Source: Alphaproteobacteria bacterium
Lineage (GTDB): Bacteria; Pseudomonadota; Alphaproteobacteria; UBA828
NCBI GenBank assembly: GCA_965220825.1
Contig: OZ244839.1
Location: 3,013,280-3,077,279 of the forward strand
Reading direction: 5' to 3'
Length of the DNA stretch: 64,000 bases
Made by a program: the position numbers and the translations under genes. Positions 7,811-12,409 of this stretch are shown in pieces. The notes beneath the pieces were generated by a model. That model saw only the letters and a program-made list of their open reading frames with translations, searched no databases and had not been told where the DNA came from. How positions within the stretch are numbered: the first letter of the stretch is position 1; each line of letters opens with the position of its first letter.

Positions 7811-8013
7811 CGGATGCCGTTCTCCCTGCGCCGCCGCCGGACTCTAATGCGGTTCCCCTTCCGATAGAACCGTTTGTCCGCCTTCAGGACCTTTGAGACG
7901 CTGGGGCTTCTTCGGCCGTCAGGTTGGCAAGCCATTCGGCCGGGGTTTGTCCGCCAAGGGCCTGGTCGGGTCTGATGGTAGCGAACGCGTCGGCCAAGGC
8001 GTCGACCTTTTTT

Positions 8014-8086
8014 GGTGCGCGGGTCTCCAGGCCCGCATTTTTCTTCTTCTCGAAAAACAAAAACATGCGGGCCTGGAGACCCGCGA
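8014..8086. repeat. Palindromic REP/MITE-like element (copy 2): 20-bp GC-rich arms around a 27-nt asymmetric loop.
   Basis: GCGGGTCTCCAGGCCCGCAT-(27 nt)-ATGCGGGCCTGGAGACCCGC, a perfect 20-bp inverted repeat. The loop is the reverse complement of the loop of copy 3 at 17455, so the two copies are in opposite orientation. Confidence 0.65.
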
Positions 8087-8100
8087 ACCGAACCTGTCAT

Positions 8101-8284: not shown

Positions 8285-9910
8285 ATGGATGCCACGATGA
8301 TGGACTACCCGCTCACCCTCACCCACGTGCTGGAGAGGATGGGCGGCCCGCTGCGCGACAGCGAGATCGCCACCCGCCTGCCGGACAAGTCGATCCATCG
8401 CTACCGCTTCGGCGATTTGCATCTGCGCGCTCGCAGGCTCGCCTCCGCTCTTGCCCGTGCCGGGCTGAAGCGCGGCGAGGCGGTCGCCACCATGATGTGG
8501 AACAACTACCCGCATTACGAAGCCTATCTCGGAGTGCCCTGCGCGGGCGGGGTGCTGCATACGCTCAACTTCCGCCTCCATCCGGACGACCTCGTCCATA
8601 TCGCGAACCACGCCGAAGACCGTTTCGTGCTGGTGGACGATGTGCTGCTGCCGCTTTTCGAGAAGGTCCGGCCCCGGATCGGCGCGGAGCGGGTCTTCGT
8701 ATCGGCGCTCTCCGGCGCGCCCATAGCGGAGGGCTATGAGAGCTACGAGGCGCTGCTGGAGACGGGCGATCCCGACGACGACCTGCCGGCGCTGGAAGAG
8801 ACCGAGCCTTGCGGCATCTGCTACACCTCCGGCACCACCGGGCGGCCCAAGGGCGTGGTCTATTCCCACCGCGCCATGGTGCTGCACACCCTGGTGGAGT
8901 GCATGACGGAGCCGTTCGGCATCGCCCGCCGTGACAGCGTCATGCCGGTGGTGCCGATGTTCCACGCCAATGGCTGGGGCCTGCCCTATGCGGTGGCGCT
9001 CGCGGGCGCGCGCTGCGTCCTCCCCGGCCCCCATCTGGACCCGGTGAGCCTGCTCGATCTCTGTGCGGCGGAGCGGGTGACGCTCGCCGCCGGCGTGCCG
9101 ACCATCTGGAACGGCATCCTCCAGGCGCTGGATGCGGAGCCCGGGCGCTGGGCGCTGGACCCGGCCTTCCGCACCGTGGTGGGCGGCTCGGCCGCGGGAG
9201 AAGCCATGATCCGGGGCTTCGACCGGCACGGTATCGAGACCATCCACGCCTGGGGCATGACGGAGATGACCCCCATCGGCACGGCATCCACGGCGGATGC
9301 GGCGGCCCGCGTCGATGCCGACCCGGACGCCCGCTACCGCCGCCGCGCCCGCCAGGGCCCGGCCGTGCCCTTCGTCGAGCTGCGCCTGGTGAACGATGCC
9401 GGCCCCGCGCCCTGGGACGGTGAGACAATGGGCGAGCTCCAGGTGCGCGGGCCTTGGGTGGCCGCCCGCTACCGCCCGCCGGCGGACGCCGGCGACCGCT
9501 GGACCGCGGACGGCTGGCTCGTCACCGGCGATATCGCCACCATCGACGCGGAAGGCTTCATGAAGGTCACCGACCGCTCGAAGGACCTGATCAAGTCCGG
9601 CGGCGAGTGGATCAGCTCGGTGGACCTCGAGAACGCGCTGATGGGCCACGCCGCCGTAAAGGAGGCCGCGGTCATCGCCATCCCCGACGAGAAGTGGGAC
9701 GAGCGCCCGCTCGCCGTGGTGGTCTGGAAGGAGGGCGCCGCGGCGGACACGGCGGAGCTCACCGCCCACTTGGCCACCCGCTTCGCCAAATGGTGGCTCC
9801 CCAACGCTTACGTCTTCATCGACGAAATCCCCCGCACCTCGACGGGGAAGTTTCTGAAGTCCGCCCTGCGCGAGCGCTATGCCGGCGGGGCGGGGAGTGG
9901 CGAGGGGTGA
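8285..9910 (+). CDS. Long/medium-chain fatty-acid-CoA ligase (AMP-forming acyl-CoA synthetase family).
   Basis: AMP-binding motifs (YTSGTTGRPKGVVYSH; TGDIATIDAEGFMKVTDRSKDLIKSGGEWIS). Start taken at the ATG at 8285 (MDATMMDYPL); the track ORF from 8012 is an upstream artefact that runs through the REP element. Confidence 0.85.
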   Translation: MDATMMDYPLTLTHVLERMGGPLRDSEIATRLPDKSIHRYRFGDLHLRARRLASALARAGLKRGEAVATMMWNNYPHYEAYLGVPCAGGVLHTLNFRLHPDDLVHIANHAEDRFVLVDDVLLPLFEKVRPRIGAERVFVSALSGAPIAEGYESYEALLETGDPDDDLPALEETEPCGICYTSGTTGRPKGVVYSHRAMVLHTLVECMTEPFGIARRDSVMPVVPMFHANGWGLPYAVALAGARCVLPGPHLDPVSLLDLCAAERVTLAAGVPTIWNGILQALDAEPGRWALDPAFRTVVGGSAAGEAMIRGFDRHGIETIHAWGMTEMTPIGTASTADAAARVDADPDARYRRRARQGPAVPFVELRLVNDAGPAPWDGETMGELQVRGPWVAARYRPPADAGDRWTADGWLVTGDIATIDAEGFMKVTDRSKDLIKSGGEWISSVDLENALMGHAAVKEAAVIAIPDEKWDERPLAVVVWKEGAAADTAELTAHLATRFAKWWLPNAYVFIDEIPRTSTGKFLKSALRERYAGGAGSGEG

Positions 9911-9966
9911 GGGGGGGGGTGGTGGAGTGAGTGGTTCGAGGTGGCTACGAAAATAAGGGGTGACCG

Positions 9967-10818
9967 ATGAGCGATATTACTCAGATAATTATTGAGAAGT
10001 GCAAGGAGCTCGAGCGAACCGATCGGGAATGCATCGAGCTATCATACGAATCGAAAACGCCTCACAGCAAAGAGGAGATTAGAAGTTATATTTCGGAACT
10101 GATGGGGGTTTGTGCCAGAGCGTTTGAACTCAAGAACGATATACAGATGCTTCTACGCCAGGAAAGTAATCTGAAAATACACGACGCCAGCCTCTCAAAT
10201 CTTATTCGAAAAATCAGAAACGACGAGGAATTCTATTCGATAACTCAGTATGAAGTAATTGCGTCGTTATTCAACACGAAGGCTGATGAATCTTCTGGAG
10301 TTTGGGAAATGGATTCCGATGATTTCATTTTTCAGCACCCCGATGCTTTCCAGGATTTCCATGGTGAGGTGGACTACGTGAAGTATTTCACGCGTTCGAT
10401 GAAGGTCGGGGGGTTGATTTCTCAACGGAGCGTACCGGACACCGCATTGGCGTATTTTCAGGAAATCCGCGACAGCTTCAGTTTCGGTCTCTACAGATCA
10501 GCAATCGCGCTATGCCGGGCGATGCTGGAAACCGTGTTCTTCGATACGTTGAAGCGACGGAACTACTTGAATGCTGGTGGATCGAAGGTGGTCAAGATCG
10601 ATCTCGCAAAGGAAGATCGCCTTTTTCGAATGATCAAGGATGCATACAGTAAGCGCGTTATCGACTACGACACCAAGGAGGATGCGTTCTTTGTTAAGAA
10701 GCAGGCAAATACAATTGTTCTTCACGCTAAGGATTCGCAACCCGAGATCACGGAGGAGGTCGCATTCGACGTGATTCAGAGAACCATTCGAGTGATTGAA
10801 CGATTGTATTCGACATAG
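9967..10818 (+). CDS. Orphan AT-rich hypothetical protein (283 aa). The C-terminal ~110 aa are DUF4145/HEPN-like helical; a candidate singleton defence/abortive-infection or toxin protein.
   Basis: GC about 40% against about 69% in the flanks. Good SD (AAGGGG) 6 nt upstream of the ATG. Clean 283-aa ORF with no overlap. C-terminal pattern A..LCRAMLE…LFRMIKDAYSKRVID…KKQANTIVLHAK…ITEEVAFDVIQRTIRVIERLY. No homologue recognised for the N-terminal 150 aa. Confidence 0.75.
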   Translation: MSDITQIIIEKCKELERTDRECIELSYESKTPHSKEEIRSYISELMGVCARAFELKNDIQMLLRQESNLKIHDASLSNLIRKIRNDEEFYSITQYEVIASLFNTKADESSGVWEMDSDDFIFQHPDAFQDFHGEVDYVKYFTRSMKVGGLISQRSVPDTALAYFQEIRDSFSFGLYRSAIALCRAMLETVFFDTLKRRNYLNAGGSKVVKIDLAKEDRLFRMIKDAYSKRVIDYDTKEDAFFVKKQANTIVLHAKDSQPEITEEVAFDVIQRTIRVIERLYST

Positions 10819-10885
10819 GTTTTCGCTTGGTCACGGCTGAGGATCTTCGGTTCGAATCAGAGAGTTTTTATATGCTCGTCTAAAC

Positions 10886-12126
10886 TGTACAGATAGGGTA
10901 ATCGCCTGACAGTCGCCGCTCCCGGGGGTTTGGTTCAGGCGGCCTTTTTCATCTTCTCCTCCTTTGGGGTTTTGGGTTTTGGCAAGCATCGGACGAAAGC
11001 GTCCGCGGGCGTCCTTCCGTTCATGCCGCGGCCCTGGTGGGGGCGCTCGGTATTGTAGCGGACAAGGTAGGCGTCCAGGTCTTTCTGCATGGTCTTGATG
11101 CTGTCGTAGAACTTCTTGCGCCCCATGACGCGGAAGTGCTCGTCGAGCAGGGCGCGGTGCAGGCGCTCGACGAAGCCGTTGGACTGGGGCCTGCGGACCT
11201 TGGTGGTGCGGTGCTCGATCTCCTCAAGCTGGAGGAACAGCTCGTAGGGGTGGCGATCGGGCCGGCCGCAGAACTCCCGACCGTTGTCGCTCAGCACGGT
11301 CTCGATCCGGGCGCCGTGGGCCTCGAAGGTGGGCAGCACGTCGTTGTTCATCAGGTGGACTGCGGTGACCGGCATCTTGTTGGGGTAGAGCCTGCCCCAG
11401 GCGTAGCGCGAGTGGCAGTCGACGGCGGTCTGCAGGTAGACCTTCCCGACCCCCTTGAGATGGCCGACGAAGAAGGTGTCCACGGCCACCAGGTCGCCGG
11501 TGTACCGGGTCTTGATGTGGCGCTCGCGGAACTCCGGTGAGAAGCGCTCCAACAGACGAACCTGTTCGCCGGAGAGCTCGATCCGGCGCTCGGCCGTGCT
11601 CTTCTCCAGCCGGAGCAGACGTTCCTGCTTGGTCAGCAGCTTATGGCGCGACCACACCCCGCGCACCCCGCCGGAAGACACGTGGATGCCCTTGAGCGAC
11701 AGCTCCTGGGCAACCCGCAATGCGCCGTGGGTGGGGTGGTCCAGCGCGTGCGCCAGGATCGCCTTCTCGACCTCCTGCGACACCCGGTTGGGATGCGGCC
11801 CGCGGGCGCCGGGAAGCCGGTCGATCAGACCCTCCGCTCCGTAGGTCTGGTAGTTCCTGCGGATCTCGTAGAACTGCTGGCGCGAGTAGCCCATGATCCG
11901 GCACGCCTTCGATACATTGTTCATCTCGCCCGCCAGCTCCAGCAGGCTCAGCTTGCGCCGTGCTATCTTGTCTTTGGTGGTCATGTCGTTCTCCCGGTCG
12001 GTCGGATGTTGTGCAAAACAATCCTTAACCCTATCGGGAGCGGCTTGGCCACCGCCGGCGCGCTCGACTCGTGACGGTCGCGCGCCCGCGGCGGCCAAAC
12101 TGTCAGGTGATTACCGTCTCACCACA
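10886..12126 (-). mobile_element. Complete IS481-family insertion sequence (1241 bp) with imperfect 28-bp terminal inverted repeats, flanked by a 7-bp target-site duplication TCTAAAC.
   Basis: Left end TGTACAGATAGGGTAATCGCCTGACAGT; reverse complement of the right end TGTGGTGAGACGGTAATCACCTGACAGT (22/28 identical, both beginning TGT). Direct repeats TCTAAAC at 10879-10885 and 12127-12133. Single transposase ORF inside. Confidence 0.8.
10935..11984 (-). CDS. IS481-family transposase (DDE integrase core).
   Basis: 349 aa from MTTKDKIARRKLSLLELAG… (N-terminal HTH), with an rve-type catalytic core (…HLKGVGKVYLQTAVDCHSRYAW…LSDNGREF…ERLHRAL…). The ORF-track start at 12098 is an in-frame upstream extension. 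Confidence 0.85.
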   Translation of the reverse strand: MTTKDKIARRKLSLLELAGEMNNVSKACRIMGYSRQQFYEIRRNYQTYGAEGLIDRLPGARGPHPNRVSQEVEKAILAHALDHPTHGALRVAQELSLKGIHVSSGGVRGVWSRHKLLTKQERLLRLEKSTAERRIELSGEQVRLLERFSPEFRERHIKTRYTGDLVAVDTFFVGHLKGVGKVYLQTAVDCHSRYAWGRLYPNKMPVTAVHLMNNDVLPTFEAHGARIETVLSDNGREFCGRPDRHPYELFLQLEEIEHRTTKVRRPQSNGFVERLHRALLDEHFRVMGRKKFYDSIKTMQKDLDAYLVRYNTERPHQGRGMNGRTPADAFVRCLPKPKTPKEEKMKKAA

Positions 12127-12288
12127 TCTAAACAGCACGACGAACAGTGCGCACCAGCGATGTAGCCCTTCTACGAGAAGATCGTCGCCGAGCGGCAGGT
12201 GGAGCAGGATCGCCGCTTGCGCGACATCAAGCGCCACGAGGCGCCGACCGGTTCTATCTGGAAGAAGACGTGCGCTTTATCGACGCAC

Positions 12289-12327
12289 AGAAAAAGGCCG
12301 CCGGAGAGGTTCTCCAACGGCCTTTCT
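12289..12327 (-). terminator. Rho-independent terminator of tRNA-Asn.
   Basis: On the minus strand, 7 nt downstream of the tRNA 3' end: GGCCGTTGGAGAACCTCTCCGGCGGCC hairpin followed by TTTTTCT. Confidence 0.5.
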
Positions 12328-12333
12328 GTGAAC

Positions 12334-12409
12334 TGGCTCCCCGGGCCGGACTCGAACCAGCGACCCAGCGGTTAACAGCCGCTTGCTCTACCAACTGAGC
12401 TACCGGGGA
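12334..12409 (-). tRNA. tRNA-Asn (anticodon GTT), CCA encoded.
   Basis: Reverse complement folds as a cloverleaf: acceptor TCCCCGG/CCGGGGA, D-arm GCTCAGTTGGTAGAGC, anticodon loop CTGTTAA, T-arm GGTTCGAGTCC, 3' GCCA. Confidence 0.9.

Follow-up and report, generated by a model that had tools for sequence, protein, structure and literature searches.

Several single-gene defense proteins are known that are built around a HEPN domain. RAZR (PD-T7-4), the ring-activated zinc-finger RNase, carries a C-terminal DUF4145-type HEPN domain that cleaves single-stranded RNA; R146 and H154 are both required for defense, the N-terminal domain confers specificity, activation relies on a ring-templated 24-mer, and the outcome is abortive infection via non-specific cleavage of single-stranded RNA (Zhang et al., Nature 2026, PMC13017515). 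HepS, a single-HEPN abortive-infection protein of the Gifsy-1 prophage, is a tetramer in which a siphovirus tail-tip protein triggers cleavage of the tRNA anticodon loop (Sargen et al., Nature 2026, PMC13043305). BxaP, a BREX-associated abortive-infection protein, and Ishtar1, an anti-plasmid protein, are experimentally active single DUF4145/HEPN proteins found beside defense genes; both carry the HEPN domain at the N terminus, with a HEAT-like domain behind it in BxaP and a beta-rich one in Ishtar1. As to the active site, an acidic residue in helix 2 has been described for HEPN domains, and it has been suggested that families devoid of the motif arginine rely on different basic residues that are conserved; a DUF4145 architecture with an N-terminal helical domain of about 140 residues ('AbiJ-NTD1') is listed in the same paper (PMC3710099).

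Here, we describe a gene for a 283-aa protein, located in a 64-kb stretch of DNA that is referred to below as the window. Like RAZR, the family to which this protein belongs is encoded by a single gene and has a C-terminal HEPN domain of the DUF4145 type. With Pfam DUF4145 (PF13643, clan CL0291), it shares a core of four helices in which an insert separates helices 2 and 3, an R..LE motif in helix 2, a [R]xx[G/A]Nxx.H motif where helix 3 ends, and a link with restriction-modification (R-M) systems and mobile elements (Anantharaman et al. 2013, PMC3710099), whereas it differs in that the query scores under the gathering threshold and Pfam recognizes only a part of the family. The N-terminal domain of RAZR is a Cys4 zinc ribbon, while that of the window protein is helical, about 150 residues long, and has three scattered cysteines. 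In RAZR, R146 and H154 form an R-x7-H motif with the arginine shifted by one helical turn, which is the spacing of most members of our family, whereas the window protein itself has K-x8-H; furthermore, the PD-T7-4 models in PADLOC matched neither the query nor any of 81 family members. HepS differs in being prophage-encoded; members of the present family turned up in none of the phage, viral-contig, and plasmid collections searched, and no sequence relationship between the two proteins was detected. Compared with BxaP and Ishtar1, the domains come in the opposite order, and the partner domain bears no relation to theirs. Unlike the HepT-MntA (HEPN-MNT, type II/VII) toxin-antitoxin systems, the window locus has no adjacent nucleotidyltransferase or conserved partner, and the protein is twice the length of the HepT-MntA type, with an extra N-terminal domain. 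The tandem RNA repeats of type III toxin-antitoxin/RNA-antitoxin systems were not found beside the gene either.

A foreign gene between an acyl-CoA ligase gene and an IS481-type element

The gene is bounded by the stop codon of an acyl-CoA ligase gene on its left and by an IS481-type insertion sequence on its right, the latter parting it from a tRNA-Asn gene (Table 1). The GC content of positions 9911 to 10885 is 46.9%, compared with 68.4% for the 64-kb window, and drops to 41.5% in the lowest 200-nt windows; this is the sole GC trough in the window (minimum 975-nt window at position 9926, about 6 SD under the mean). Within the ORF, the overall GC content is 46% versus 70% in the flanks (where GC3 is 90%), while its GC3 amounts to 56% versus 87 to 92% in five neighboring genes. 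By composition, the gene is thus foreign and horizontally acquired. The original prediction of a foreign gene with atypical codon usage, comprising a clean 283-aa ORF with an AAGGGG Shine-Dalgarno sequence, was confirmed in all these points, whereas the drop in GC content postulated to begin at the ligase stop codon was correct as to the trough but not as to its depth, which is about 47% and not "roughly 40%", and the first ~50 nt past this codon remain G-rich.

Table 1. Positions of the features of the locus in the window.
Feature	Position	Strand	Remarks or basis
Acyl-CoA ligase stop codon TGA	9908-9910		followed by a run of nine G at 9911-9919
Leader, 56 nt, ligase stop to ORF	9911-9966	+	G9 run and Shine-Dalgarno sequence; read from sequence
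Shine-Dalgarno sequence AAGGGG	9955-9960	+	6 nt ahead of ATG
283-aa ORF, stop included	9967-10818	+	ATG start; low GC, horizontally acquired
N-terminal all-helical domain, residues 1-156	9967-10434	+	
C-terminal HEPN domain (predicted DUF4145 type), residues 158-283	10438-10815	+	
Helix-2 motif C183-R184-x3-E188	10513-10530	+	conservation in family
Codon of R184	10516-10518		
Codon of E188	10528-10530		
Predicted catalytic stretch K244-K-Q-A-N248-T-I-V-L-H253-A-K255	10696-10731	+	helix 3 end
Codon of H253 (CAC)	10723-10725		
3' flank of ORF, to left IS target duplication inclusive	10819-10885	+	sequence read
7-bp target duplication TCTAAAC, left and right copy	10879-10885 and 12127-12133		
IS481-type insertion sequence, 1241 bp	10886-12126	-	terminal inverted repeats, target duplication, transposase
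Right target duplication, 154-nt spacer, terminator hairpin, tRNA-Asn(GTT)	12127-12409	-	
tRNA-Asn terminator hairpin	12288-12330		
tRNA-Asn(GTT)	12334-12409	-	

A scan of positions 9700 to 11000 revealed no terminator-like site or hairpin and no usable sigma-70-like promoter ahead of the ATG codon, so read-through from the ligase gene into the ORF is possible. The ORF is intact and under purifying selection. A second, independent assembly (metagenome contig L006) carries identical DNA over the whole ORF, the only two indels between the two assemblies compared being located outside it, at positions 7983 and 15581, while the dN/dS ratio versus an 80%-identical homolog (in L091) is 0.19, and divergence from the closest homolog consists mostly of synonymous changes. 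A frameshift as the cause of a shorter, 169-aa gene call in ENA was ruled out, since the ORF is identical between the assemblies. The window contains no other defense gene; a transposase stub is present upstream of the ligase gene.

The insertion sequence occurs in one copy in the window and begins 67 bp downstream of the ORF. Its terminal inverted repeats start with TGT and match at 22 out of 28 positions, its transposase comprises HTH_28/29/32 as well as rve and rve_3 domains, and the target-site duplication is found exactly where it had been predicted. The element is no part of the function of the gene and splits the DNA between the latter and tRNA-Asn. The gene had also been placed just past the terminator of tRNA-Asn, as at a typical island site: the tRNA gene is indeed there, but the insertion sequence lies in between, no integrase is encoded between positions 9911 and 12409, and the 3'-terminal 25-mer of the tRNA has a single occurrence in the window, also when up to three mismatches are allowed, indicating no att repeat. 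Integration targeted to the tRNA is therefore not demonstrated in the window, though a decayed island is possible, since the islands of three relatives (L001, L009, and L099) do end in an integrase and a tRNA gene. A search for an empty site yielded no clean one. JGI metagenomes provided ligase relatives that were at most 62% identical and not syntenic, with tRNA-Asn in none of 32 loci. The 283-aa gene was absent next to the two closest ligase orthologs looked up (80% identical, on multi-megabase contigs); in both, the downstream gene encodes hydantoinase B, and this junction is not comparable as an empty site.

Family membership and domain architecture

The designation of the protein as an orphan proved overstated, as searches revealed 10 close homologs among 5.8 billion proteins and 214 clusters at E ≤ 1e-3 among 1.84 billion representatives, nearly all from uncultured bacteria. 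By this count, the family is nevertheless rare. A close-clade search of 185,579 species yielded one genome, a Thalassospiraceae MAG, and no member was found by tblastn against plasmids and phages or in scans of IMG/VR viral contigs. Full-length homologs align with the query from residue 1.

When searched alone, the query gave no significant match in Pfam, NCBIfam, PADLOC, PHROGs, or PDB sequences, and its score against DUF4145 was 11.6 bits (E 0.3, residues 166-238), below the gathering threshold of 23.1 bits. However, 38 of the 81 family members matched this profile at E ≤ 1, with a best E-value of 2e-8, and one of them (P0017), which is 35% identical with the query (E 1e-41), scored 26.4 bits, above the threshold, over profile positions 3-81 and residues 164-260, including the histidine motif. 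Since the query itself lies below the threshold while its relatives match, its probable membership in DUF4145, as originally proposed for the C terminus, is transitive. No PADLOC model was matched by the query or most relatives. Searches of PDB sequences with three profiles (full-length close clade, full-length broad family, and C-terminal domain) produced coiled-coil noise and did not retrieve RAZR. The HEPN domain is also matched by phrog_1305, which is labeled "DNA binding protein".

In the predicted model, the N-terminal domain consists of a long helical hairpin (residues 4-28 and 35-65) followed by five short helices, and its only cysteines are at positions 12, 22, and 49. As the original prediction had stated, the N-terminal 150 residues match no known fold or family, and the domain modeled and searched alone returned generic helical hairpins as sole matches; we propose that it is a sensor or oligomerization module. 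The C-terminal half has the fold of the HEPN superfamily, with helix 1 at residues 158-172, helix 2 at 176-197, helix 3 at 234-252, helix 4 at 263-280, and the insert at 198-233. None of the findings that would have spoken against the proposal, i.e. a housekeeping family, a pseudogene, or a non-HEPN fold, was made.

Conservation of the putative active site

Among the polar residues of the whole protein, just five are invariant or nearly so, namely H253, R184, E188, E278, and C183, and all of them are within the HEPN half. H253 is kept in all 81 members and, in the predicted model, directly follows helix 3 and would be exposed at its end, while R184 and E188 are present in 80 members each and C183 in 75. 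E188 falls within helix 2, as does the conserved acidic residue of catalytic HEPN domains. The end of helix 3 is closed by the family motif [R/K]xxANx(2-3)LH, in which N248 is found in 62 out of 81 members and position 244 is basic in 53 (R in 40 and K in 13, with I in 10 and Y in 8), K244 being invariant among the 10 close homologs. Most members have R-x7-H, whereas the query's clade has K-x8-H, with a one-residue insertion (residue 250) that is specific to this clade and absent from 71 of the 81 members. With regard to the Rx4-6H motif, the canonical arginine position is occupied by Ala247 and the polar position by Asn248, the nearest basic residue being K244. The K-x2-N-x4-H stretch predicted at this site therefore holds as to the conserved histidine that ends helix 3, but had been counted from K245; from K244, it reads K-x3-N-x4-H. 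Catalytic competence is not assured, because the canonical arginine is missing, position 244 is basic in only 53 of the 81 members, and the query has a lysine and an extra residue there. Judging from its conservation, R184 is a candidate substitute for the lost motif arginine.

Genomic settings of the relatives

The suggestion to look for defense genes around the gene in other genomes was borne out, since relatives occupy defense-island and mobile-island settings. One of them (P0006) resides on an island with SNF2, an N6/N4 methyltransferase, GmrSD-HNH, ResIII-REase, and D12/MT-A70 methyltransferases, an integrase, and tRNA-Arg. Others are located directly after Eco57I and a PLD-SNF2 gene (P0004), after a type III R-M system and a PDC-S19/DUF3644 HEPN gene (P0008), among Eco57I, HEPN_RiboL-PSP, RelA_SpoT, and AIPR genes with an integrase and tRNA-Leu (P0161), 15 bp after an HNH restriction endonuclease and ahead of a serine recombinase (P0001, 80% identical), or next to a C5 methyltransferase, Vsr, an integrase, and tRNA-Val (P0012). 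Altogether, R-M, abortive-infection, or HEPN genes are present within 10 kb in six of eight informative contexts, often as immediate neighbors, a count based on a small sample of about eight loci and given without a formal enrichment statistic. No neighbor protein within ±4 kb is shared by the eight loci, and family loci have no conserved flanks. A further member (L100) is a lone gene with 35 to 45% GC in a 70%-GC genome; hence, the gene is solitary in two unrelated high-GC genomes, the other being that of the window, with its ORF intact and all invariant residues preserved. At the window locus, no adjacent small ORF that might encode an antitoxin was found, even after in silico removal of the insertion sequence, and no tandem repeats or Rfam families other than the tRNA are present near the gene.

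Discussion

Taken together, the protein is probably a self-contained, single-protein HEPN RNase/immunity protein of the abortive-infection type, i.e. a two-domain, single-gene module composed of a family-specific helical N-terminal half and a DUF4145-type HEPN C-terminal half. That it would act on its own is suggested by (i) the absence of a common neighbor at eight loci, (ii) its solitary occurrence in the window and in L100, and (iii) the lack of an antitoxin candidate, while the single-protein reading has a precedent in four validated HEPN/DUF4145 defense proteins, RAZR, BxaP, Ishtar1, and HepS. According to this proposal, the protein would be made constitutively and held inactive until its variable N-terminal domain recognizes a product of a phage or mobile element or mediates trigger-dependent oligomerization. 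HEPN domains brought together in this way might form a composite active site in which E188 and R184 of helix 2 support H253, N248, and K244 (the last being arginine in most relatives), and metal-independent cleavage of single-stranded tRNA, rRNA, or mRNA would then stop translation and halt the spread of the phage or plasmid. We infer here that the protein is an RNase, is auto-inhibited, responds to a trigger of the kind given above, acts by abortive infection, and is active in this particular host.

One might argue instead that the protein is an accessory of R-M systems, serving as a second-line HEPN nuclease or regulator in need of a neighboring R-M enzyme, and is orphaned and idle in the window. 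DUF4145 was first noted fused to or clustered with restriction endonucleases and helicases, and R-M genes are immediate neighbors at four loci (Eco57I with PLD-SNF2, type III R-M, the HNH endonuclease 15 bp upstream, and the C5 methyltransferase with Vsr). However, the type of partner differs at every locus and no neighbor family is in common, the gene is alone yet intact with all invariant residues in two unrelated high-GC genomes, and RAZR, HepS, BxaP, and Ishtar1 each function as single genes, all of which makes such a dependence unlikely. Less likely still is a catalytically dead HEPN domain serving in binding or regulation, like MtlR or the HEPN domains associated with nucleotidyltransferases. 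Several motif-less HEPN families are non-catalytic (PMC3710099), and the missing Rx4-6H arginine, the variability of position 244, the lysine and the inserted residue of the query's clade, and the label of phrog_1305 would fit this view, but the invariant H253 would be exposed at the catalytic position, helix 2 holds a near-invariant glutamate and arginine, RAZR is an active RNase with the same shifted R-x7-H arrangement, and R184 could replace the motif arginine, as is thought for other HEPN families.

The gene in this window could nonetheless be an inert remnant, since the window lacks another defense gene, an integrase, and a demonstrated promoter. Going further, it might be a leftover of an eroded tRNA-Asn island or a hitch-hiker of an insertion sequence, unexpressed or drifting to loss here. 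In accordance with this, no integrase, att repeat, recognizable promoter, or terminator accompanies it, an insertion sequence follows at a distance of 67 bp, a transposase stub is found upstream of the ligase gene, and about 1 kb remains here compared with the 10 to 20 kb of the relatives' islands with integrase and tRNA. Nevertheless, this is the least probable of the three alternatives in our view, because the ORF is full length and has a good Shine-Dalgarno sequence, none of the residues invariant in the family has been lost from it, a second, independent assembly carries the identical sequence, and divergence from the closest homolog is predominantly synonymous.

Beyond the single-protein immunity function favored above, we tentatively consider, as a possibility somewhat short of even chances, that the protein founds an as yet unnamed family of single-protein immunity systems comprising about 214 clusters, in which a hitherto undescribed helical sensor domain controls a DUF4145-type HEPN RNase. 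In this RNase, the catalytic arginine would have left the classical motif, its role being taken by K/R244, one turn upstream, and/or by the near-invariant R184 in helix 2. This would not be a new principle, as the expected mechanism is the known succession of sensing, RNA cleavage, and abortive infection. If true, however, it would mean an active-site solution of its own and presumably a trigger specificity not seen before. Single-protein HEPN immunity has been elucidated only recently, and in RAZR, HepS, BxaP, and Ishtar alike, the domain other than HEPN determines what is sensed. The family supplies a new, confidently modeled partner domain on a known effector as well as a naturally occurring form of the catalytic motif in which a lysine and an altered spacing are found. 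It is absent from PADLOC, so that defense annotation pipelines would miss it, and its occurrence as a solitary gene in two high-GC genomes provides a clean test case for one-gene defense.

Composition and borders of the ORF283 islet

ORF283, the 283-codon open reading frame under study, is a horizontally acquired, solitary gene. The stretch at 9911-10885 has a GC content of 46.9%, as compared with 68.4% in the window overall, and its lowest 200-nt windows reach 41.5%. In a 975-nt scan of the window the minimum was found at 9926, about six standard deviations under the mean, while the rest of the 64 kb never fell below 58%. GC at third codon positions is 56% in ORF283 versus 87-92% in coaBC, the acyl-CoA ligase, the IS transposase, the FemAB-like gene and the TPP enzyme gene. 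The trough anticipated by the original prediction is therefore real, although it lies at about 47% GC and not at 40%; when the reading frame, the trough and the borders were re-read, the rest of the description of the locus proved accurate apart from small corrections.

The features of the locus and of its relatives are collected in the table. A run of nine guanines (9911-9919) starts right after the ligase stop codon, exactly where the composition shifts; it could be prone to slippage or mark a scar left at the junction. A promoter or terminator was sought in the interval between the ligase gene and ORF283 and none was recognised; the two genes may therefore be transcribed together. The insertion sequence (IS) on the right has terminal inverted repeats identical at 22 of 28 positions and starting with TGT, and is flanked by a perfect 7-bp target duplication, TCTAAAC (10879-10885 and 12127-12133). 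On the other side of the ligase gene, a minus-strand 60-aa ORF (7884-8066), which ends ...IRPDQALGGQTPAEWL..., resembles what is left of the C-terminal end of an rve-type transposase; next to it, an AT-rich loop is enclosed by a perfect inverted repeat of 21 bp (8021-8041 / 8066-8086). IS-related DNA (7884-8090 and the intact IS at 10886-12126) thus brackets the ligase gene together with ORF283.

Features of the ORF283 locus and of loci carrying related genes
Feature	Locus	Position	Strand	Remarks
Acyl-CoA ligase stop (TGA)	window	9908-9910		left border; followed by the G9 run
Shine-Dalgarno-like AAGGGG	window	9955-9960	+	upstream of ORF283
ORF283	window	9967-10818	+	ATG start, 283 codons
IS	window	10886-12126		right border; transposase with HTH and rve domains
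tRNA-Asn terminator hairpin	window	12288-12330
tRNA-Asn(GTT)	window	12334-12409	-
P0006	L001			Thalassospiraceae MAG; only match among 185,579 species genomes; in island
P0006 island end	L001	17867-18861		tyrosine integrase directly beside tRNA-Arg
P0161	L009			near Eco57I, HEPN_RiboL-PSP, RelA_SpoT and AIPR genes
P0161 island end	L009	14396-15659		tyrosine integrase directly beside tRNA-Leu
P0001 (closest homologue)	L091			15 bp after HNH restriction-type endonuclease; serine recombinase downstream
P0012	L099			beside C5 methyltransferase and Vsr
P0012 island end	L099	7572-8736		tyrosine integrase directly beside tRNA-Val
P0017	L100	10001-10846		solitary, at 35-45% GC against 70% in its genome (region 9400-11100)
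P0004				50 bp after Eco57I + PLD-SNF2 gene
P0008				downstream of type III methyltransferase, type III REase-like SLFN/AlbA helicase and PDC-S19/DUF3644 HEPN gene

An independent metagenome contig (L006, from ENA) is identical in DNA to the window throughout ORF283. The two differ by just two single-base indels across 11 kb, at 7983 and 15581, both outside ORF283 and probably errors of this 3.7x-coverage contig. The public gene call on it (P0007; 8400-8909, corresponding to window 10309-10818) comprises only 169 aa and starts at the internal Met115, so that the full 283-aa protein is absent as an exact sequence from the protein collection; gene callers may systematically truncate low-GC ORFs in high-GC genomes.

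ORF283 belongs to a rare family with a C-terminal HEPN domain

Ten close homologues (52-80% identity, nearly all 282-293 aa) align with the ORF283 protein from residue 1 through the end. When 1.84 billion cluster representatives were searched exhaustively with HMMER, 214 clusters passed E<=1e-3 and 85 passed E<=1e-10; among the matches listed, the majority have 250-320 aa, and the shorter ones look fragmentary. An ungapped Nei-Gojobori comparison of one pair, ORF283 and its 80%-identical homologue in L091, gave dN 0.109, dS 0.562 and dN/dS 0.19. Judged from these sequence comparisons, ORF283 is protein-coding and under purifying selection, and the family is rare but genuine.

As sole query, the ORF283 protein had no significant match in NCBIfam, PADLOC or PDB sequences, and matched Pfam DUF4145 with an E-value of only 0.3 (residues 166-238). 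When the 81 full-length members were scanned individually, DUF4145 was matched in 38 (best E 2e-8), with no other recurring family. P0017, 35% identical to the ORF283 protein (E 1e-41), scored 26.4 bits against DUF4145 (gathering score 23.1), its residues 164-260 covering profile positions 3-81 of 88. In the structural model, helices 158-172 and 176-197 form a first hairpin and helices 234-252 and 263-280 a second, with an insert (198-233) that is in part of low confidence; this topology matches the published HEPN definition (PMC3710099). The model's HEPN matches, each over about 110 residues, include Csm6, the AbiA HEPN domain, LsoA, RnlA and HepS, and the same structures were top-ranked by Foldseek, with probability ~1 and weak E-values. 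The N-terminal domain is novel. Two existing labels look unreliable: phrog_1305, 'DNA binding protein', matches the HEPN/DUF4145 half alone in 43 of the 81 members, and the member P0282 carries the JGI name 'YeeX (DUF496 family)'.

All strongly conserved polar residues of the 81 sequences lie in the C-terminal half: H253 (81/81), R184 and E188 (80/81 each), C183 and E278 (75/81 each) and N248 (62/81). H253 directly follows helix 3 and E188 lies within helix 2, positions that in HEPN RNases hold the catalytic histidine and the auxiliary acidic residue (PMC3710099); from motif position and conservation, these two residues are predicted to play these parts. At the canonical arginine position, immediately before the polar asparagine, the family has Ala, Ser or Gly. 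One turn upstream, position 244 is occupied by R (40 members), K (13), I (10) or Y (8), and the majority motif reads R-x2-A-N-x-[IV]-L-H, i.e. R-x7-H, the same spacing as R146/H154 of RAZR, whose defence requires both residues (PMC13017515). In the clade of the window Lys244 is invariant and a one-residue insertion gives K-x8-H; the stretch proposed earlier as K-x2-N-x4-H is present, but it reads K-x3-N-x4-H.

Relatives of ORF283 associate with defence islands

The family associates with defence islands, and in every locus compared its gene has a lower GC content than the surroundings. The P0006 island encodes an SNF2 helicase, an N6/N4 methyltransferase, GmrSD-HNH, ResIII + RE_endonuc, a ResIII helicase and D12/MT-A70 methyltransferases. 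The islands of L001, L009 and L099 are of the classical tRNA-integrated type, unlike the integrase-less window. The P0017 locus closely parallels the window and is an independent case of a single-gene islet: its neighbours are housekeeping genes, including one of the inositol-phosphatase family (Pfam Inositol_P), with a MazE/PemK (MazEF) pair on the other side, and no tRNA lies nearby. When the ORFs lying up to 4 kb to either side at eight loci were compared all-against-all by BLASTP, no common neighbour emerged, and no family member was found in plasmid records, phage records or IMG/VR contigs.

Some loci have features of their own. In L007 (5042-7137) a DUF3644/PDC-S19 gene immediately precedes the family gene, with a type III restriction-modification (R-M) system upstream; as DUF3644 is a HEPN domain according to a 2026 preprint, this locus would hold two different HEPN proteins in tandem. 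In the P0161 branch (L009 9155-9922, L010 9237-10004) a 255-aa ORF without a family match, absent from other loci, overlaps the family-gene start by 4 bp; this hints that the two are translationally coupled and that the ORF may encode a partner specific to the clade.

Discussion

The foreign, solitary gene with a DUF4145-type HEPN domain that was originally proposed is confirmed in substance, including its novel N-terminal domain, and belongs to a rare, defence-island-associated family. An att repeat and an integrase were sought at the locus and neither was found. A tRNA-targeted origin, as a decayed island beside tRNA-Asn, is plausible, since three relatives ride integrase-plus-tRNA islands. 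Among the ligase orthologues compared no clean empty site was found: in the nearest (~80% identity) another gene follows the ligase, and those further removed are non-syntenic. The rival reading in which an eroded island left ORF283 behind as inert DNA agrees with these two absences and with the IS debris on either side, but disagrees with the intact, conserved state of the gene.

Dependence on a partner, as expected of an R-M accessory, is argued against by the heterogeneity of partners between loci and by the two solitary occurrences (the window and L100). The gene is autonomous: after in-silico removal of the IS, the window offered no small ORF as a candidate antitoxin, and the ORF283 flanks had no conservation, no tandem repeats and no Rfam match besides the tRNA. 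The invariant and exposed His253, the conserved Glu and Arg and the RAZR precedent speak against a catalytically inactive HEPN domain; as the canonical arginine is missing, this reading keeps a low probability.

The best-supported reading, by analogy, is that the ORF283 protein is a self-contained sensor-effector, a type documented in four cases: (i) RAZR, a zinc finger with DUF4145, is activated by phage ring proteins and cleaves ssRNA (PMC13017515); (ii) HepS is a lone HEPN protein with tRNA anticodon nuclease activity, which a tail-tip protein triggers (PMC13043305); (iii) BxaP joins DUF4145 to a HEAT-like domain; and (iv) the anti-plasmid Ishtar1 joins it to a beta-rich domain. The ORF283 protein falls outside all named systems (RAZR, HepS, BxaP, Ishtar, HepT-MntA) and most likely works like them. 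A HEPN nuclease surviving as a lone gene would need to be auto-inhibited, which is consistent with the sensor-effector model. Presumably expressed in its host, the protein would use its variable N-terminal domain to sense a mobile-element product or to mediate oligomerisation, whereupon the HEPN domain would cut RNA and translation would stop.
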